Counted from the stretch's first letter, positions 18,185 through 59,562 are shown. The stretch is 64,000 bases of DNA from a virus (IMGVR_UViG_2839610755_000002); one strand, 5' to 3'. Program-made: numbers and translations. Notes: a model not told the origin generated them from the sequence alone.

Positions 18185-18502
18185 ATTGGCAGCCTCCTTA
18201 GACGTTGGTATGTAACCACCGCAGAAGAGACCAATCTTGCTGGCGGTGGACTGTACGGAGTTGGCCTTACTGGCGTCCAAGGTAACCAGCCTACCCGAAG
18301 GTAGCCCCATACAGCCCACCATTGTAGAGGTGTGCGTGTACGCCGATACAAAAAAAGACGCGAGCGGCGTCTGTATCGCCTTAGACTTAAGCGGGAGGCC
18401 AATCCCGGCACCCGTTTTAATGAGGTGCCTGATAAGCATAAACCGAAAATGCCTCAAGGCGCAAGAGGTCAGGTTCAATGTAACATCGGTAGCTAAAAAA
18501 CA

Positions 18503-46899: not shown

Positions 46900-47898
46900 T
46901 CAATCATTACCGCGCGACGGTTTCTGCGTGATAAACGTTTCAAGCATCTTTTCCGCAATTGCCGACCAGGTGTGACACTGGACCTTTTCAGCATTTTTCA
47001 CGCGATCAACGCGAGCAATAACCTCATCCCAATCAATCCGCGACTTGATAACCATATGGTTCACCAAAGCCAGGCGATCTGGCGGAAGGCAATCTGGCGG
47101 CGTTAATATCAACGCCCCACACATTGCCGCCTCAAGAACAGTTAATCCAAGGCTTTCGGGATGCGTAACGATAAAAACGTCACTCTTACGCAATTCAGCT
47201 GCAAATTCGGTTGCTGGTACCGGCGTCCGTCTGTATGGAGTTACCGAAATATTCCCCGGATCAATGGTAACCAATCCGTCATCGGTCAACGTTCTGGCCT
47301 CATACGGAACGGGCAGACGCTGAAGGTTCATAAGGATACTTAAGGAGTGATCAAACCCACTAACATCAAATGCAGCGTGGTCTACAAAAATACGCAGAAC
47401 ATCGTCTGTCTTGGTTTCCAGATGGAACAGTTCCTGATTCGCTGCCCATCCAACATGTTTGTTAAAGCGATTATGACGCTCTAACCTGCCGGGATTATCC
47501 AGGTACCGCCAGGTATCATCGCGGACAGTAAAAGTAATATCGACTGGTGCCGAATCCAGCATAGAACCGTCATATACCTGGGCTACCCATCCAGAGAATC
47601 GGCGACACAGTTGCATGCCTATTTCCCTGGGTACCGTAGTAAAATACCTCAATCCTGGTGCCAAAATGGCCTTCGCAGAACATGCGGTCGCAGCAGTCAA
47701 CACAGCTTCAACATAATCCTCCGGGCTTTCGACGCCAGGGGAATATGGACGATGGTATTGCAATGTTACCCCTGCCTCACTAAAGGCGCAGGCCAGGTTA
47801 TAAGCCCACATTTCCGTATATGTTTTCACATCACTGATGGCTTCAAATTTTCGCCCAATGATCAGGATGTTCATCGGCTTTTCCTCATTCCATTGCAT
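46900..47898 (-). CDS. GT-B-fold glycosyltransferase-like protein
   Basis: C-terminal HPESLGLTVLEAAMCGALIL resembles the GT1/GT4 E-x7-E region; immediately downstream of ban. Confidence 0.5.
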   Translation of the reverse strand: MQWNEEKPMNILIIGRKFEAISDVKTYTEMWAYNLACAFSEAGVTLQYHRPYSPGVESPEDYVEAVLTAATACSAKAILAPGLRYFTTVPREIGMQLCRRFSGWVAQVYDGSMLDSAPVDITFTVRDDTWRYLDNPGRLERHNRFNKHVGWAANQELFHLETKTDDVLRIFVDHAAFDVSGFDHSLSILMNLQRLPVPYEARTLTDDGLVTIDPGNISVTPYRRTPVPATEFAAELRKSDVFIVTHPESLGLTVLEAAMCGALILTPPDCLPPDRLALVNHMVIKSRIDWDEVIARVDRVKNAEKVQCHTWSAIAEKMLETFITQKPSRGND

Positions 47899-49268
47899 TA
47901 ATAATCCTCTTGCCAGTCAGCACCGGCATAGTTATCAAACCGTGAGTATTGGCCGTTAAAAGCCAATCTCACCGTGCCAATTGGGCCATTTCGTTGCTTT
48001 CCGATAATTACCTCGGCAATGCCCTTCATTTCGCTATCCGGGTGATAAACTTCGTCGCGATACAGAAACATGATCAGGTCTGCGTCCTGCTCAATTGCTC
48101 CTGATTCACGTAAATCTGAATTTACCGGTCGTTTGTCCGCACGCTGTTCAAGCGATCGATTAAGTTGTGACAATGCCACCACCGGTACTTGTAATTCCTT
48201 CGCCAAAGCCTTCAGTGAGCGAGAAATCTCGGCAATTTCCAGCGTTCGGTTATCTTGCAGCTCGGGGACGCGCATAAGTTGCAGGTAGTCGATCATAATC
48301 ATGCTCAAACCACCATTTTCTTTATAAACACGACGAGCGCGGGAACGAAGCTCTGTAGGTGTCAGGGCGCTTGAGTCATCAATAAAAATATTCTGCTTGT
48401 CCAACAGAATCCCCATTGCGCCAGAAACCCGCGCCCAATCCTCGTCGTTAAGTTGCCCTGTTCGAATACGAGTCTGATCAACGCGTGCAAGAGAAGCCAG
48501 TGAGCGCATCATCAGTTGGTGGCTCGGCATCTCAAGGCTAAAAACCAATACGGGCTTATCGTTACGGACTGCGGCATTTTCGACGAGATTCATCGCAAAC
48601 GTAGTCTTCCCCATCGATGGGCGGGCGGCGACAATAATGAGATCGGACGCCTGAAGTCCTGCCGTCTTCTTATTGAGATCGGTAAATCCGGTATCAAGCC
48701 CCGTTACACCATCATGCGGTCGCTGAAACAACTCTTCTATGCGAGATACCGTTGCATCGAGAATGCTGGCGATATCTTTTGGACCACTACCGCTCTTTTG
48801 TCGTTTTTCAGCTATTTCAAAAACGCGGCGCTCGGCCATATCCAGCAATTCATTGCTGCCCCTGCCATCCTGCGCATATCCAGCTTCAGCTATTTCATTT
48901 GCGACGGAAATCATTTCACGAACAACCGCGCGTTCACGAACGATATCCGCATAAGCACAAATATTTGCCGCGCTGGGCGTGTTCTTTGACATCTCCGCAA
49001 GGTACGCAAAACCACCGGCGCGTTCTAATTTACCGTTCTGTTCAAGTGCTTCAGCAAGTGTTATCAAATCAATCGGTTTGCCATGACTTAATAACCTCTC
49101 CATCTCACTGAAAATTTCACGATGAGCACTGGTATAAAAATCATCAGCAACTATACGATCTGCAACTTCATCCCAGCGGCAGTTATCAAGCATTAAGCCA
49201 CCAAGTACAGCTTGTTCTGCACTAAGGGAATTTGGCATGGATTCAAGAGGGGATGCAGACATTAGCAC
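47898..49268 (-). CDS. ban: Ban, DnaB-family replicative helicase
   Basis: 456 aa with DnaB-like N-terminus (SAEQAVLGGLMLD) and Walker A (ARPSMGKTTFAMN). Confidence 0.85.
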   Translation of the reverse strand: MLMSASPLESMPNSLSAEQAVLGGLMLDNCRWDEVADRIVADDFYTSAHREIFSEMERLLSHGKPIDLITLAEALEQNGKLERAGGFAYLAEMSKNTPSAANICAYADIVRERAVVREMISVANEIAEAGYAQDGRGSNELLDMAERRVFEIAEKRQKSGSGPKDIASILDATVSRIEELFQRPHDGVTGLDTGFTDLNKKTAGLQASDLIIVAARPSMGKTTFAMNLVENAAVRNDKPVLVFSLEMPSHQLMMRSLASLARVDQTRIRTGQLNDEDWARVSGAMGILLDKQNIFIDDSSALTPTELRSRARRVYKENGGLSMIMIDYLQLMRVPELQDNRTLEIAEISRSLKALAKELQVPVVALSQLNRSLEQRADKRPVNSDLRESGAIEQDADLIMFLYRDEVYHPDSEMKGIAEVIIGKQRNGPIGTVRLAFNGQYSRFDNYAGADWQEDY

Positions 49269-49542: not shown

Positions 49543-49618
49543 TGGTGGCCCCTACCGGACTTGAACCGGTGACCGTGCGATTATGAGTCGCCAGCTCTAA
49601 CCACTGAGCTAAAGGGCC
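49543..49618 (-). tRNA. tRNA with CAU anticodon (Ile2/Met-type; ileX-like acceptor stem)
   Basis: Hand-folded cloverleaf: acceptor GGCCCTT/AGGGGCC, anticodon loop CTCATAA, T-loop TTCAAGT, encoded CCA; coordinates approximate. Confidence 0.7.
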
Positions 49619-49645: not shown

Positions 49646-50473
49646 TTATTTCACCGGAACAAACGGAACAGCGGTATTACTGGTCATATACTGCGGTAAT
49701 GTACCGTTCCATTTGTTGATCGCTTCCAAGTCCATAACACCGGGGTTCTGGCGCAGAGCTTCACCACGTAAACGAATGGCATCAGCTTCGGCCTGGGCTT
49801 TTGTGCGAATAGCATCAGCCTGTCCGGCAGCTTCCGCGCGCAGCATGTTGGCCTCTGCTTCACGTTGTTTGACCTCTTGCTCGCGTTGCAGGGTTTTTTG
49901 GTTTGCCGTGACTTTGGCGTTAATACTGTCAATAACTGTTGGCGGGTATTCTGGCTTACCTACATAAGAGAGGCTCATCACCTGAATGCCGATTGGCGTC
50001 ATTTCTTCCTGAATGTCTTTAAGGGCTGCATCAAGCAATTCAGATTTGCCACCGTCGATAAATTTGTCGGTGGTCATTTTGCTGGCTAATCGGTTCAGAG
50101 CATCTGCAACCTTCTGGCGTAGATCGGTATCAGTAATATCATCTACACCTTTGCGATAGGTCTGAAATACCGTTGTGACTTTTGCTGGATCAACCTTGTA
50201 GGCTACGCCGATGTGGTAACCAATGGTTGTTCCGTCGCTCATCTGGAAGCTGAACGGCTCATCGTATGTCTTCATTTGCTTAAAGGTCGGGAAGATATAA
50301 ACTTCAGTATTCAAGCCTGTCCAGTAGCGACCAACGCCAACTACTTCACCGATACCTTTATCATCCCCCAGCTTATTTACTTTGATCCCTACGTTACCTG
50401 GCTCTACCCGATCGCATCCGGTCAGACATAAAGAACCCAAAATAATCGCTGCACTAATCAACGTTTTTTTCAT
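49646..50473 (-). CDS. SPFH/band-7 family lipoprotein (Plp-like)
   Basis: Signal peptide with lipobox LTGC, then a prohibitin-like domain and Ala/Glu-rich coiled coil. Confidence 0.55.
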   Translation of the reverse strand: MKKTLISAAIILGSLCLTGCDRVEPGNVGIKVNKLGDDKGIGEVVGVGRYWTGLNTEVYIFPTFKQMKTYDEPFSFQMSDGTTIGYHIGVAYKVDPAKVTTVFQTYRKGVDDITDTDLRQKVADALNRLASKMTTDKFIDGGKSELLDAALKDIQEEMTPIGIQVMSLSYVGKPEYPPTVIDSINAKVTANQKTLQREQEVKQREAEANMLRAEAAGQADAIRTKAQAEADAIRLRGEALRQNPGVMDLEAINKWNGTLPQYMTSNTAVPFVPVK

Positions 50474-50690
50474 TAATTAATTTCCTGGTTTTTTCACGAA
50501 AAAAGACTACTGCGAAAGCCGGGTAAATGAGCGCGAGAAGGACTCCCAACAATACAAGTATTGTGCTGTTAGATGAGATCATATTTGGCAAAAGCCAAAC
50601 ATACAGAACCAGTGACACAATCAAACAGAGGACGGCATAAATATATAACCGCACCCATAGCGTTCGACATTTGTTCGGATTGTTCTGCAT
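50454..50690 (-). CDS. small membrane protein (Upl-like)
   Basis: 78 aa with two hydrophobic helices, overlapping the plp-like start. Confidence 0.4.
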   Translation of the reverse strand: MQNNPNKCRTLWVRLYIYAVLCLIVSLVLYVWLLPNMISSNSTILVLLGVLLALIYPAFAVVFFREKTRKLINEKNVD

Positions 50691-51563
50691 CCTCTCACTC
50701 CATTATTTAACGAATAAAAAAGCTGCGGTGCCGGGTTCCTCCCGGTGTCCTTTGGCTGGTTATCCACCGTGGACGTGGAAACAAGGAGAAATAATGGACA
50801 GATATAACCATTTCCCCGCGTGCGCTTAGCCGCATTCACCGCAACGGAAAGAGCATTCTTGGTGGACCTGTAGATTGGGATATGAACCCGTTACAGGAGA
50901 ATGCTCTTACCTGTTACGTGCTCCGTTTCGTGGAGCTAACGGCGGGTGATCAGACCGCACCAGACTGGACTTATTTCAGCGTTATGCTCATGCCAGAGAA
51001 TCAAACTGTGATGGTCGGTGCTGAACTCCGACACAGGGTTGTAGCAAGCCCCGCAAAGCGCGCACTACTGTAGTTGCGGCACATCAGCCTGTGCATTCAC
51101 CACAATGTTGAGAACACTGGTTGTCACGCGGCAACGCAACATTTATTCGTAGATTGGGATATGACCCCGTTACGCCAGTGTTCTCAACGTTGTAGTTGTT
51201 ATGCGTATTCTCTTACTAACCGCACACCAATACATTTCCCATCACGTTCATTTGTCTCGAAACGTGAATACTTAAGTTCGCCGTTAATAATCGCTGTTAC
51301 AACCCGTATCCCGTTAAACGCCCACATATTTCGCTCCATTTACACACATTACCAGTCGCCGGTTACGGTTCCGGCCAGGCCTCTTCCTCAACGGGGTGTT
51401 CTCCATACGGACTACCGTTTATTGGTCGTTCCTGCGGTTTATGTTGTGAAGCCAGATGCTTATCTTCTGGTTGCTTCTAAGATCTGCACTTCATCACAAC
51501 GGTAAGAGCACTCGATGCATTTAAGCCAGGCCCCATAAGGGAGAATGCTCTTACCTGTTATGT

Positions 51564-51639
51564 TGGTGCCGATTAACGGGATCGAACCGCTGACCATTCG
51601 CTTACAAAGCGACTGCTCTACCAACTGAGCTAAATCGGC
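51564..51639 (-). tRNA. tRNA-Thr (UGU)
   Basis: Hand-folded: acceptor GCCGATT/AATCGGC, anticodon loop TTTGTAA, T-loop TTCGATC, encoded CCA; coordinates approximate. Confidence 0.8.
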
Positions 51640-51643
51640 AATG

Positions 51644-51730
51644 TGGTGGGGAGTGATGGAGTCGAACCACCCGAGTCGCAATGACAGTAGATTTACAGTC
51701 TACCCCGCTACCCCTACGGACTAACTCCCC
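51644..51730 (-). tRNA. putative class II tRNA, Tyr-like (GUA anticodon, long variable arm)
   Basis: 87 nt: acceptor GGGGAGT/ACTCCCC, anticodon arm GTAGA-CTGTAAA-TCTAC, 15-nt variable arm, T-arm GGTGG-TTCGACT-CCATC, CCA. D-arm pairing is irregular. Confidence 0.45.
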
Positions 51731-51735
51731 TAAAG

Positions 51736-51810
51736 TGGCGATGGTGGGTGGATTCGAACTACCGACCAGTTGGTTAACAGCCAACTGCTCTACCGCTGAG
51801 CTACACCATC
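51736..51810 (-). tRNA. tRNA-Asn (GUU)
   Basis: Hand-folded: acceptor GATGGTG/CACCATC, anticodon arm GTTGG-CTGTTAA-CCAAC, T-loop TTCGAAT, CCA; coordinates approximate. Confidence 0.75.
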
Positions 51811-52273
51811 ACTTGCCGGGTACGTCTCCGGCGAGGGCTTCCACCTCCGTATGCTTTTCGGCGCACCGCGCCCTGGCTGCAATTCGGTAACAGGGGATGC
51901 ATAACCCTGGCTTCCAGCGTGATTAGCGCCTTCAGCATGACGGGATATACCCGTAAATTCGTGGAACTGTACCCAAAGTGCTGTTAAGCACCGCTGTTAC
52001 GCTGAAAAGAAAACGCAACAGGAAAGGACGCTGACCAACAGATGGCCCCTTCTCGTTCATCTGGTTAATCACACCAGCGCCCTTACCTGTTGTGCCTCCC
52101 CGTTCCCTAATACACAGACGGGGACACTCTGCGGTCGATTTTTTGACGGGGGACGACTCATACCCCATGGCATCTGGCTTCTTAGGCCGCTACCATCATC
52201 AGATCATCGTTTGCATTTACTTTAATGGTCAGTTTCTAAACCGCCGCAAAGTCGCTAACCATGACGAAAACCC

Positions 52274-52301
52274 TGAAAAAAACGCCCACCCGAAGATGGG
52301 C
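52274..52301 (-). terminator. intrinsic terminator downstream of dmt (GCCCATC-TTCG-GGTGGGC then T7)
   Basis: 7-bp stem with a UUCG tetraloop and a run of 7 T on the minus strand, about 190 nt after the dmt stop. Confidence 0.6.
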
Positions 52302-52475
52302 AAACTGGACGCTCGTAACGCACTTCGGCGTTGCCACTTAGGCGCATGGTCAACCTGGCAACTCGGTGGTTTGTCTGGGAGGACTAGGCCCAGCCATGCT
52401 TACCGCCGCGCCTGTCGCGGCTAACAGCTAAATCGCTCTATAAATCACGATTCATTGAGGTGATATTACACTAAT

Positions 52476-52492
52476 AAATTTATTAGAGCAAT
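52476..52492. promoter_or_regulatory. C1 operator, perfect consensus match, overlapping the dmt stop codon
   Basis: AAATTTATTAGAGCAAT is the exact reverse complement of ATTGCTCTAATAAATTT; preceded by ACACTAATAAATTT giving a near-palindromic double site. Confidence 0.7.
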
Positions 52493-55400
52493 ATACCCAA
52501 AACGTCATGAGCTACACCTCGAGTGTCCCCCTTACAAGACACAGAACGTCTGGCAAAAAGAGGTTCCACTCTGAAGCCACTGTCATGATAAAGCTCTCTG
52601 ATGTTTGGCGCGCCACTGTTAGTAATGAGAACCTTTGCACCTCGACGATGAGCATCCGTCAACAGAGACACCAGGCGTTTTTGCTCTTCAAACTTAAAGT
52701 CATGACCGGAATAGTTCGTGAATCCCTCTGTATTTGGAAGCGGTTCATACGGCGGATCGCAAAAGATGACATCTCCTTCTCCGGCAGCTTCAATCACCGC
52801 TGCAAAATCACCGCATACAAACTCAGACCGCCCTTCCGCACCGAGGAAGGCTTCCATCTCCTGTAATGGGAAATACGGAGTTTTATACTTCCCATAACCG
52901 ACATTGAACTCACCGGCCTGGTTGTAACGCGTCAATCCGTTAAAACAATGTCGGTTCAGGAACAAAAACGCCGCTGCGCGATGTAAATCATCATAGACTT
53001 GTTTGTTAAACGCATTCCGTACTGCCAGGTATCCTTCCTGTGTGTTGTAGTCCTGGAAGAAACGATGTGCCAGAGTGATAAGTGAATGCGCCTCGCGTTG
53101 CAGAGTCTTGTAAAAGTTAATCAGGTCAGCATTCACATCATTTAGCAGATTTTCCTGGTATCCGGCATTCATGAAGACAGCTCCGCCACCAACGAAAGGT
53201 TCAATCAGGCGCTTCCCTTCTGGCAAATAGCGAAAGATTTGTTCCAGAACACCAAATTTTCCACCAGCCCATTTGAATATGGACCGTTCGAATTCTGCCG
53301 CTGGTTTAACTTTTCGCTCTTTTGTTTCACTTCCTTCTTTCTGCCGACATACGGCCTTAGTAATCCGATCGCCAATCCAGCGCATTACTGGTATTGCCAT
53401 ACTATTGCCGATCGCTTTGTAACGCGGTCCGTCAGCTGCAAGCATTGCGGCCTCTTCTTCGCTTAAATCTGGATAGTGATTGTGCAGATATGCCAGTTCA
53501 TCTGAATTAACTTTTTTACGCTTTTCCGTAGGGATCAACGTATGCCAATCAGGAAAACCTTGCAGCCTTTCACATTCGACAGGGGTAAGACGGCGCATTC
53601 TACCGTCGCCGAGCAATACAATTGGTGCTTCATGGTTACATGTCAAAGTTGGTGCCGAATTATCGGTTTTTATCTCAGCCCCTCCTTGCCCATGTGCCAT
53701 GGCAATTATGTTTGTATCATCGCAAGTTCTGATAGCGATGTTTGAAGTATATCTGGTAGTTTCCTTCCCCTCGCCTCTGCTCGGCGCAATATTCCGGCGC
53801 ACGCCTTCGAACTCAAAAAGTACCGTTGCGGGATCGAGATCTGTTCGAGCACTTGCGACAACAAACACGCGTCGGCGTCGTTGTGCCACTCCGAAGTATT
53901 GGGCATCAAGGATTCTCCAGGCCACTTTTCGCTGCGGTCCATAAATACAACCACACTGCGGCCACTTTGGAACATGGCAACCGGTTTTGCCATCCCACCG
54001 CCAGAACGCGTTGCTTTTTCCTGATTCAGGTCGATCACCTGGTTCAAATGGCACATCTTCTCCAGCCAATCCGGCAAGGAAACATCCGAAGGCGTTATCT
54101 GCCGATGACAAGACTCCTGGGACATTTTCCCAGACGATAACGGCTGGTTTGAGAAATGACTCAGCCCGTTTGTCGTCAATTGCATTTGCAAGCTCCACAT
54201 ACTTTAAAGTTAGCGCGCCACGCTCATCATCAAGCCCACCACGTAATCCCGCGATACTGAATGCCTGACAGTTATGGACCACCGCACCATTGAGGATATA
54301 GGAATGATCACCTTCGACTTCTATGTTGTATACAGTATCTAGGCCTACCGATTTAAACTCTTTGACTGTTCGTAAAAGCATTCCATGAGCCAATCTTGAT
54401 TTACGTGACAATTTCTGCGGGCAGATTGTTACCTGATAATAATTCCGTTGATTTACCACGCGATCCTCGATCACTTTTTTGGGCTCAACTTCAATAAAGC
54501 TGACCGAAGAAACATAACCACAAGTCTGTGACAACCCCGCAACGCCCCAAGCAAGCGCAGAACTAACACTATTAATTCTAAATCCCGCTTTACCACTTGG
54601 TGTCCCATCAGTATCAAGATAGCCTTGTAAAAACACATGACGCAATGGATGCGACATCACCCATGCAGGGATACGCTTAGCATGGCTTAACTCGCCAAAA
54701 TGTTCATTAAGCCAATTGGCATAACACGTATCATTCAAGGTTACTTTGATGCTCCCTCGGATTTCGCTTGCCACGGAAAATATGTTTTCTGGTATGCGGC
54801 AATGAAACTTTCTCAATTTCTGGCAATTTATGCCAAAAACAACCGCCTTCTTAGATTTACCTCTCCATCTCCTAATATATCCATCGCCAACATAAGCGCC
54901 CGCAAGATACATAGCCTGTTCTTCAGACAAGAACCGAGAACAAATATCTGGAAATGCAATATTGAAATTAGTTAGAGCGCACCATTGATATCCCGGCATA
55001 TCACATGCTGCTCGCCATTCCGGTTCAGACAACAACTCTCTCTTAAAATATGTGCCATTTTTCCGGGTGTTTTGGGCTTTCCACCGAACAGCCAGGAAGG
55101 GATGGTCATTGGTTGTTCTTATACCTAAAGGCTGCCCAACGGCATTAAGTAACCCCGTATTAGCTATTTTTGAACCAACTCTTTTTACTTGTTGTAACCG
55201 CCCGAGATGACTGACTACGTAATCACCAGGGCAAACATTTTCTATTGGTTTATAGCCATTTTTACAAAGAACCATATGCCCCGCGGTAAAACATGGTGTT
55301 CCCCCGACGAGCACGTCAGGGGATTCGATTTCCCCAGCCAAGACTTTTTTGGCAAGTTTTTTCATGTCGCCAAGGTTGGCAACATGGGGCCAGCGGAGCG

Positions 55401-57993: not shown

Positions 57994-58154
57994 ATGTCAT
58001 TCTTTTCTACGTTAAAAACAGCTTTGTCTTTGAAGGAGAAACTTGCTGCTACTGGTGTTCTTGTTCTGATTTGCGCACTTGTTGGTGCTGGGTTTGCATG
58101 GGAACGTCATCAGCTAAAGCAAGCCATGGAGAAAATTGGCAGTCTTGATCAGGC
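57994..58154 (+). pseudogene. 5' fragment of a transmembrane/coiled-coil gene interrupted by IS copy 2
   Basis: MSFFSTLKTALSLKEKLAATGVLVLICALVGAGFAW... with AGGAGG upstream; the frame runs into the IS. The same frame resumes after the IS (about 59468-59654). Confidence 0.45.
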
Positions 58155-58196
58155 TGAACCGCCCCGGGTTTCCTGGAGAGTGTTTTATCTGTGAAC

Positions 58197-59087
58197 TCAG
58201 GCTGCCAGATCATCGTTTCCGATGGAAGCATAATAAGCTTTTTCTGCTTCTGCCGGAGGAGTATGGCCCAGCCTTCCCAGCAATCGTCGATTGTTATACC
58301 AGTCCACCCACGTTAGTGTGGCCAGTTCCACTTCTGCACGGTTTTTCCAGCTCTTACGGTGTATTACCTCCGCTTTGTAAAGACCATTGATGCTCTCAGC
58401 CATCGCGTTGTCATACGAGTCGCCTGTACTCCCTGTTGATGCCAGTAATCCGGCTTCTTTTAGTCGCTCCGTATAGGCCAGTGACACATACTGAGAGCCT
58501 TTATCGCTGTGATGGATGGTGCCAGACGGACGACGGGCCCACAACGCCTGCTCCAGCGCATCCAGCACGAATGTCGTTTCCATAGACGATGAGACCCGCC
58601 ACCCCACGATGTATCCGGCAAACACATCAATGATAAACGCCACATAGACGAAGCCCTGCCATGTGCTGACGTAAGTAAAATCAGCCACCCACAGCTGGTC
58701 AGGTCGTTCTGCCACGAACTGACGGTTTACGCGGTCGCCTGCGGCAACGGCTTTCCGGCTGATGGTCGTACGGACCTTTTTACCCCGGAGAACACCGGCA
58801 AGTCCCATAACCGCCATGAGACGTGCCACTGTACATCTGGCCACCCTGATTCCTTCCCGTAACAACTGACGCCAGACTTTACGCACACCGTACACCTGAT
58901 GATTTTCATCGTATACGCGCTGTATCTCTCTCTTCAGCCAGTCGTCGTGCTGCGCACGGGCACTGCGTTTATCCGGATGATGTCGCTGTTGCTGACAATG
59001 GTAATACGTTGACGGGGCAATATGCAGTTCGCTGCATACCGGTCCGACCCCGTACTGCTCACGCAGCTTATCCAGCAGTGGCATCAT
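58197..59087 (-). CDS. IS3-family transposase OrfB
   Basis: Identical to the 41784..42674 protein. Confidence 0.85.
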
Positions 59088-59410
59088 TTTTTCCAGAGGC
59101 GGTCGAACTCCGCCTTCGCAAAATAAGCGGAAGCCTGGCGAAGGATATCGTTACTGCGGCGCAGTTCACGATTTTCACGTTCCAGCTCTTTCAGACGCTG
59201 ACGTTCAGCGCTGGTGAGCCCACCATCACCGCCCCCGGTATCCCGCTCATGCTGGCGAACCCAGACACGCAGAGTCTCCGGCGTACAGCCAATCTTTGGG
59301 GCAATGGAACAAATTGCCGCCCACTGTGAGTCATATTCATCCTGACTTTCCAGAACCATACGAATCGCCCGCTGACGGACTTCGGGGGAAAAACGAGTAT
59401 TTTTAGTCAT
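59084..59410 (-). CDS. IS3-family transposase OrfA
   Basis: Identical to the 41461..41787 protein. Confidence 0.85.
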
Positions 59411-59562
59411 CCTGTTTACCTCTTTCTCAGGGAGTTTAGTCTCCAGGATTTCCGGGGCGGTTCAGGCTGTTAAGGAACGTGATAAGTCAATAATGGATCT
59501 TAACCAGACCATTGAGACGATGAACAAAGCAGAGCAACATTTTCACAGCCAGGAAGTGAAAA

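Follow-up and report, generated by a model that had tools for sequence, protein, structure and literature searches.

A tyrosine-type tRNA gene between tRNA-Asn and tRNA-Thr

The window (the whole 64,000-nt stretch of DNA that was analysed) holds four tRNA genes according to ARAGORN: tRNA-Asn(gtt), tRNA-Tyr(gta) and tRNA-Thr(tgt), which lie side by side, and a tRNA with the anticodon CAU further along the same strand (Table 1). The tRNA-Tyr gene is separated by 5 nt (CUUUA) from tRNA-Asn and by 4 nt (CAUU) from tRNA-Thr. A first-pass annotation had pointed to this site, describing an 87-nt element 4-5 nt from the Thr(UGU) and Asn(GUU) genes with a 7-bp acceptor stem, a perfect 5-bp anticodon stem closed by the loop CUGUAAA, a 15-nt variable arm, a T-arm with TTCGACT and an encoded CCA. 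It had proposed an extra class II Tyr(GUA) tRNA gene and named a tRNA predictor as one way to check it. ARAGORN makes the same call, and each of these elements can be read on the minus strand with the dimensions given.

Table 1. Positions of the features discussed, counted from the first nucleotide of the window
Feature	Position	Strand	Basis
C4 antisense RNA, two matches	18239-18428 and 46568-46773		75.9 and 70.7 bits
isrK-like RNA adjoining one C4 match	18351-18428
a1/b1 target element adjoining the other C4 match	46721-46773
1315-nt inverted copies (two)	41403-42717 and 58154-59468		100% complementary; each with an ALIL pseudoknot (Rfam, 121.5 bits)
ban, DnaB-like helicase gene, distal in the Pban operon	47898-49268	-	Pfam DnaB_C 1.1e-107, DnaB 2.8e-35
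CAU-anticodon tRNA, downstream in the same operon	49543-49618	-	ARAGORN Met, but 100% identical to P1 trnI (tRNA-Ile2)
275-aa ORF, SPFH/Band 7 family	49646-50473	-	Pfam 9.7e-31
78-aa ORF	50454-50690
tRNA-Thr(UGU), 76 nt, third gene of the cassette	51564-51639	-	ARAGORN, Rfam; 82% identical to P1 trnT
tRNA-Tyr(GUA), class II, 87 nt, encoded CCA	51644-51730	-	ARAGORN, Rfam alignment, annotation in MH160767 and by PGAP on E. coli plasmids, family covariation
tRNA-Asn(GUU), 75 nt, first gene of the cassette	51736-51810	-	ARAGORN, Rfam; 86% identical to P1 trnA
DicF-like part of the Pban leader, closed by a terminator-like hairpin (52302-52283)	52266-52368	-	P1 annotation transferred by alignment; hairpin identified in the window sequence
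C1 repressor operator Oban(ab), overlapping promoter P1ban; contains ATTGCTCTAATAAATTT at 52492-52476	52463-52492	-	Identical to annotated P1 features, transferred by alignment

Divided by structural element, the gene reads GGGGAGU (acceptor stem), UAGU (connector), CCGU AGGGGUA GCGG (D-arm), G, GUAGA CUGUAAA UCUAC (anticodon arm), UGUCAUUGCGACUCG (variable region), GGUGG UUCGACU CCAUC (T arm), ACUCCCC (acceptor stem), A and CCA. The acceptor strands form 7 bp and the anticodon strands 5 bp, and the 7-nt anticodon loop, with the anticodon GUA at 51696-51694, is identical to that of E. coli tyrU. The 15-nt variable region (51686-51672) contains a 3-bp stem, GUC/GAC, with a 5-nt loop, and the discriminator A is followed directly by the encoded CCA (A84, then C85 C86 A87 in gene numbering). 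E. coli TyrRS recognizes its tRNA through G1:C72, A73, G34-U35 and the long variable arm. All of these determinants are found in the phage gene (G1:C72 and A73 being G1, C83 and A84 in gene numbering), together with the A36-A37-A38 context.

All four tRNAs of the window match the Rfam tRNA model (RF00005). The tRNA-Tyr gene reaches 41.9 bits, where the gathering score is 29, and spans model positions 1-71 of 71 (E = 1.7e-5 in a search of the whole 64-kb window against 4227 families); its neighbours score 64.7-69.9 bits, 26-28 bits higher. Every helix is recovered in the alignment, and the low score arises because the alignment has to accommodate two extra bases, 'gu', between positions 9 and 10 and counts the long variable arm as inserted sequence. 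The observation of a tRNA gene at this site is confirmed, and from its sequence it is very probably a functional tRNA-Tyr gene.

The D-arm is shifted, and the shift is conserved

The D-arm begins further from the acceptor stem than in a canonical tRNA. Its stem (51719-51716 paired with 51708-51705) is a regular 4-bp helix, CCGU/GCGG, with the 7-nt loop AGGGGUA, and it is preceded by a connector of 4 nt (UAGU, 51723-51720) in place of the canonical 2 nt (U8, N9). A single base follows the D-stem; the distance from acceptor stem to anticodon stem is 20 nt, as in E. coli tRNA-Tyr, and is split differently. The first-pass annotation had been unable to fold this arm canonically by hand, and the D-stem that starts 4 nt past the acceptor stem, with the two bases that Rfam has to insert, bears this out. 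Two other registers were considered and rejected, one pairing 10:25, 11:24 and 12:23 after a 2-nt connector and one with an E. coli-like 'CCCG' D-arm. Both create G.G and C.C mismatches and conflict with the covariation of CCG/CGG to CUG/CAG seen in T5-type genes.

The predicted folding energy of the single sequence was no better than that of shuffled sequences (z = -0.67), and the minimum free energy structures of the tRNA-Tyr genes of T6 and of the rV5-like phage LL12 were not cloverleaves. Folding of single sequences is uninformative for tRNAs, so covariation within the family was used instead. Family members were taken from IMG/VR and duplicates removed, leaving 28 distinct sequences, which were aligned and compared with a cloverleaf in which the D-stem pairs gene positions 12-15 with 23-26 and encloses a 7-8-nt loop holding the usual A, GG and A. 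In this alignment 99.1% of cells were paired; shuffles gave 85.5%, and sliding the partners gave 44-57%. Changes on both sides were observed in 15 of the 24 pairs, and none of 500 shuffles reached the observed values on any measure. The shifted D-stem itself is 100% paired, with compensatory changes from CG to UA in five sequences and from GC to UA in one, and all four stems and the variable stem are maintained across the 28 sequences. Because this covariation supports the full cloverleaf, the unusual D-arm is a conserved trait of the lineage under purifying selection, and not a sign of decay.

The connector is 4 nt long across the lineage and 5 nt in one subfamily (GGGGAGU UAAUU/UAUUU CCGU...). 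This subfamily was found at ten IMG/VR loci, in large T4-like and CR3-like phage contigs, and its members are not called by ARAGORN.

The gene belongs to a lineage of phage tRNA-Tyr genes

A search of phage records with the 87-nt gene gave 1524 records with a match. The full-length matches listed are mostly annotated as tRNA-Tyr and come from Tequatrovirus, Vequintavirus, CR3-like phages, Tequintavirus, Felixounavirus and other phages; some homologues in phage records are labelled tRNA-Val or tRNA-OTHER, or have no annotation. Identity to the window gene is 93.1% for rV5-like LL12, 89.7% for T6, 79.5% for a T5-like phage, 75% for a FelixO1-like phage and 63.6% for E. coli tyrU. The phage members all have the variable arm GUCAUUG(C/A)GAC and the same arrangement of the D-arm, and the copy of the lineage variable arm in the window (GUCAUUGCGAC) is identical to those of T6 and of the T5-like phage.

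The T6 gene (Tequatrovirus; NC_054907 66468-66554) is also 87 nt long and shares with the window gene the anticodon loop, the variable arm including the C48 cleavage context, the T arm, the encoded CCA, the 4-nt connector and the shifted D-stem. Nine substitutions separate the two, located in the connector, the D-loop, position 26, the anticodon stem and one T-stem pair. Their settings differ: in T6 the gene lies in a tRNA-rich region of a virulent phage beside the homing endonuclease SegB, which amplifies it, whereas the window gene is present once, in a temperate phage-plasmid, and is controlled by C1/Pban. No homing endonuclease is annotated in the 8.6-kb stretch examined of MH160767, a phage record described below. 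The T5-like genes (Tequintavirus; SP15 and T5) belong to the same lineage by their variable arm and D-arm register, the latter preserved by the compensatory change CCG/CGG to CUG/CAG, but their acceptor and anticodon stems differ from those of the window gene, and they are transcribed from a strong promoter of their own inside a region of many tRNA genes. E. coli tRNA-Tyr (tyrU/tyrT/tyrV) shares class II architecture, the loop CUGUAAA, G1:C72, A73, CCA and the variable stem GUC/GAC. It has a 2-nt connector, a 3-bp D-stem with a large D-loop and a 3-nt variable loop, in contrast to the 4-nt connector, 4-bp D-stem with 7-nt loop and 5-nt variable loop (AUUGC) of the window gene.

A scan of 185,579 species-representative bacterial and archaeal genomes for the exact anticodon-loop-plus-variable-arm pattern gave three matches, none of which is a tRNA, and no cellular donor was identified among them. 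Within what this exact pattern can detect, the lineage thus appears to be confined to phages and phage-plasmids.

The 87-nt query also matches PLSDB plasmid records of Clostridioides (17), Clostridium, Bacteroides and Phocaeicola; identity between 80 and 90% is found for 19 PLSDB records, and Enterococcus phages match at 77-79%. The lineage, or relatives of it, may extend to phages of Gram-positive and Bacteroidota hosts.

The Asn-Tyr-Thr cassette replaces the two-gene arrangement of P1

The cassette occupies the locus of the P1/P7 tRNA operon (trnA-trnT-...-trnI), downstream of Pban/Op72 and with ban downstream, and trnI is identical. The 750 nt upstream of tRNA-Asn, including Pban, the C1 operator and the dicF-like leader, are 98% identical to P1; inside the tRNA genes the identity falls (Table 1), and the Asn allele is nearer to an N4-type Asn gene than to P1 trnA. 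Reference P1 (NC_005856) and P7 (AF503408) have only tRNA-Asn and tRNA-Thr here, 2 nt apart, in agreement with the statement in the first-pass annotation that P1 carries no tRNAs other than Asn, Thr and Ile, while the window has Asn-5-Tyr-4-Thr with divergent Asn and Thr alleles. Since these alleles diverge from P1 next to a nearly identical upstream region, the whole three-gene cassette was exchanged, and the tRNA-Tyr gene did not arrive by simple insertion. The replacement probably occurred by recombination within or beside the tRNA genes. Across P1-like contigs tRNA-Tyr is 97-100% identical amid mosaic flanks and Thr alleles; a multi-way alignment of cassette and flanks confirmed the mosaic pattern and was too gappy to give exact recombination junctions.

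Several versions of the cassette occur among P1-like contigs in IMG/VR. Asn-5-Tyr-4-Thr is the commonest, and Arg(UCU)-5-Tyr-4-Thr is also seen (five loci), each with or without a tRNA-Ser(UGA) 195-320 nt beyond. The presence of Arg(UCU) in place of Asn indicates that the first slot of the cassette is exchangeable. Arg(UCU)-Tyr adjacency also occurs in rV5-like phages, LL12 among them. The tRNA-Ser(UGA) follows tRNA-Thr in many P1-like contigs and is not found in the window; in P7 (AF503408, locus positions 1291-1377) some 450 nt beyond tRNA-Thr ARAGORN calls a tRNA-Ser(tga), which the P7 record leaves without annotation. N4-like phages have a cluster of the same layout (for example MK931297 32441-32690, and phage 3HA13 at locus positions 1001-1250), namely Asn, 5 nt, a class II tRNA, 4 nt and Thr, which is 76% identical to the window over 248 nt. 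The middle gene of that cluster, however, is a 90-nt tRNA-Ser(UGA), where that of the window is tRNA-Tyr.

Between the tRNA cluster and trnI, where P1 has tciA-tciB-tciC, the window instead has the 78-aa ORF and the SPFH/Band 7 ORF, the latter described as 'putative serine protease' in MH160767.

A gene with existing annotations, common in P1-like phage-plasmids

Over 601 nt around the tRNA cluster the window matches Escherichia phage vB_EcoM-Ro157c2YLVW (MH160767 / NC_050153; genus Punavirus, host STEC O157) at 100% identity, and the three genes, tRNA-Asn(gtt), tRNA-Tyr(gta) and tRNA-Thr(tgt), are annotated in MH160767 at the matching positions. Of 5426 complete E. coli genomes, 269 carry the gene at an identity of at least 95%, in 272 plasmid records and in no chromosome; nearly all of the plasmid records listed annotate it as tRNA-Tyr (PGAP). 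Among the 576 E. coli records with a P1-type upstream region, 272 (~47%) carry tRNA-Tyr, and the same comparison in PLSDB gives 243 of 589, the carriers including plasmids of Shigella, Salmonella, E. albertii and E. fergusonii. The gene is thus known, annotated and common in natural P1-like phage-plasmids.

A literature search returned no relevant description of a tRNA-Tyr in P1-like phages or in phage Ro157c2YLVW, the P1 and D6 genome papers probably lying beyond its reach. As annotation, the present analysis adds nothing to what the identical GenBank record and the listed E. coli plasmid records already state. Only mildly new are the prevalence figure, the cassette variants at the tRNA locus of P1 and the conserved displacement of the D-arm by 2 nt throughout the lineage. 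They do correct the textbook picture drawn from reference P1, with Asn, Thr and Ile tRNAs only: a fourth is present in about half of natural P1-like elements.

The tRNA genes lie in the C1-repressed Pban operon

The order of the operon is leader, tRNAs, trnI and ban. Its start is presumed to be at Oban(ab)/P1ban. The records of both P1 and P7 describe C1 control of the operon at Op(ban), and in that of P7 the tRNA genes and ban are named as its targets. The C1-controlled Pban, about 650 nt upstream, is the sole promoter identified for the single-copy tRNA-Tyr gene, and between the two stands the terminator-like hairpin of the dicF-like leader, about 470 nt upstream of the gene. The dicF-like region has no Rfam match at the gathering score. 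A sigma-70 promoter scan of 51300-52700 returned no site, but the scan is insensitive and also missed the annotated Pban. Because the gene belongs to a C1-repressed operon, tRNA-Tyr is probably expressed during lytic growth, after infection or induction; read-through from Pban past the hairpin to the tRNA genes is assumed here.

A proposed role in counter-defence

Studies of the closest characterized homologues suggest what the gene may be for. The Septu system EcB88 stops T6 through cleavage of the variable arm of tRNA-Tyr, at C48/A49 in the host tRNA and at C48 in the T6 tRNA; overexpression of T6 tRNA-Tyr rescues the phage, deletion of the T6 tRNA region sensitizes it, and T4, which has no tRNA-Tyr gene, cannot escape (Chihara et al, 2026; PMC13096335). 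The PtuAB effectors of retron-Eco7 likewise deplete tRNA-Tyr, and the tRNA-Tyr of T5-like SP15 and that of T5 rescue phage from this defence (Azam et al, 2024; PMC11555353). Rescue by the SP15 gene requires the Tyr anticodon and intact stems and varies in strength with the promoter, and E. coli tRNA-Tyr expressed from the strong phage promoter is as effective as the phage tRNA (PMC11555353). A structural study did not reproduce direct cleavage of tRNA-Tyr by PtuAB of retron Ec78 in vitro (PMC12819146), which leaves part of the published mechanism unsettled.

According to the model that we propose, tRNA-Tyr would be co-transcribed with tRNA-Asn and tRNA-Thr from Pban, silent in the plasmid prophage and made on infection or induction. 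Host tRNA-processing enzymes would excise it from the precursor and, since the CCA is encoded, none would have to be added. Host TyrRS would then charge the tRNA, which would decode UAU and UAC. Its selective value would lie in sustaining the decoding of tyrosine codons when the infected host depletes its own tRNA-Tyr, as with Septu PtuAB or retron-Eco7 PtuAB. Since Septu still cuts the T6 tRNA at C48 and the two genes have identical variable arms, the tRNA of the window would be expected to act as added supply or as a competing substrate and not by being uncleavable.

We consider it rather probable that a functional tRNA-Tyr of a phage-restricted lineage entered the P1 family in an exchanged Asn-Tyr-Thr cassette and was favoured for counter-defence; that counter-defence is its main benefit, judged by analogy with T6 and the T5-like phages, we put at an even chance. 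Protection in the T5/SP15 and T6 work depended on high dosage, achieved by a strong promoter or by gene amplification (PMC11555353, PMC13096335), and a single copy in the P1 operon may give little protection. Should the proposed role apply, carriage of the gene, seen in 269 of 5426 complete E. coli genomes, would equip P1-like phage-plasmids in advance against immunity directed at tRNA-Tyr, with a bearing on the efficiency of P1 transduction and on the spread of these plasmids.

Cleavage of tRNA-Asn and tRNA-Thr as well by PARIS would tie the whole cassette to one defence; this idea was set aside, no mention of such cleavage having been found in PMC11464382.

Alternative explanations

The gene might simply add to translational supply in late gene expression, so as to meet the demand of the phage for amino acids and codons, together with the Asn, Thr and Ile2 tRNAs and with no link to defence. 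Comparing the ORFs of the window with a 50-kb sample of E. coli, we found ACA enriched 2.6-fold, AUA 3.4-fold, AGA 2.5-fold and UCA 2.1-fold. These codons fit Thr(UGU), Ile2(CAU) and the cassette variants Arg(UCU) and Ser(UGA), making codon compensation a good explanation for the other tRNAs of the locus. The Tyr codons (UAU and UAC) are also enriched, but only 1.23-fold, which makes it a weak explanation for tRNA-Tyr. In E. coli a single Tyr isoacceptor, with one anticodon, reads both Tyr codons; there is thus no rare Tyr codon to serve. Moreover, reference P1, P7 and about half of natural P1-like elements manage without the gene, and counter-defence has been demonstrated for its closest characterized homologues. 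A modest general benefit from added tRNA-Tyr is possible, but supply as the only function we hold to be a doubtful account, one that should be entertained tentatively.

A broader proposal, which we regard as unlikely, is that the locus downstream of Pban is a site for swappable counter-defence cassettes and that the D-arm shift alters how tRNA-targeting nucleases, but not TyrRS, see the tRNA. The variants at the site (Asn or Arg(UCU), Tyr or nothing, Thr, with or without Ser(UGA)) have tRNA modules in common with virulent T-even, rV5-like and N4-like phages, and on this view the Tyr module may give a temperate plasmid-prophage resistance to tRNA-Tyr depletion of the Septu or retron-Eco7 type.

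The shifted D-arm and the 5-nt variable loop, AUUGC against 3 nt in the host, could also point to a replacement tRNA that protects by resisting the nuclease and not by dosage, and Chihara et al (PMC13096335) cite earlier work in which T5 tRNA-Tyr resists retron-Eco7 through its distinctive variable loop. However, EcB88 still cuts the T6 tRNA, whose variable arm is that of the window gene, and the equal rescue by E. coli tRNA-Tyr from a strong phage promoter argues for dosage. We therefore find nuclease resistance improbable as the basis of any protection by the window gene.

The first-pass annotation had left three readings of the element standing: a divergent tRNA, a pseudo-tRNA or a processing spacer. 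Only the divergent tRNA survives: that the element is a pseudo-tRNA, spacer or hitch-hiking remnant, never aminoacylated and at most guiding by its shape the cut of the Asn-Thr precursor by RNase P or RNase E, is very hard to credit, for although the 4-nt connector, the low Rfam score, the unremarkable single-sequence fold, a sister subfamily that escapes ARAGORN and the unannotated or otherwise labelled homologues could be taken that way, all stems are kept by many compensatory changes, the shifted D-stem included, the anticodon loop, A73, G1:C72 and CCA are intact, the gene is conserved amid mosaic flanks and has annotated homologues among its many phage matches, those of T6 and the T5 family are expressed and biologically active (PMC13096335, PMC11555353), with the Tyr anticodon needed in SP15, and a spacer is unnecessary because reference P1 processes its Asn and Thr tRNAs with just 2 nt between them.

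Other features of the window

The two 1315-nt inverted copies (Table 1) look like two copies of an insertion sequence, probably of the IS3 family. Between them lie 15.4 kb with the tRNA locus, ban and dmt. The two matches to C4 antisense RNA, one adjoining an isrK-like RNA and the other an a1/b1 target element, suggest either two immunity-I-type regions or a duplication.
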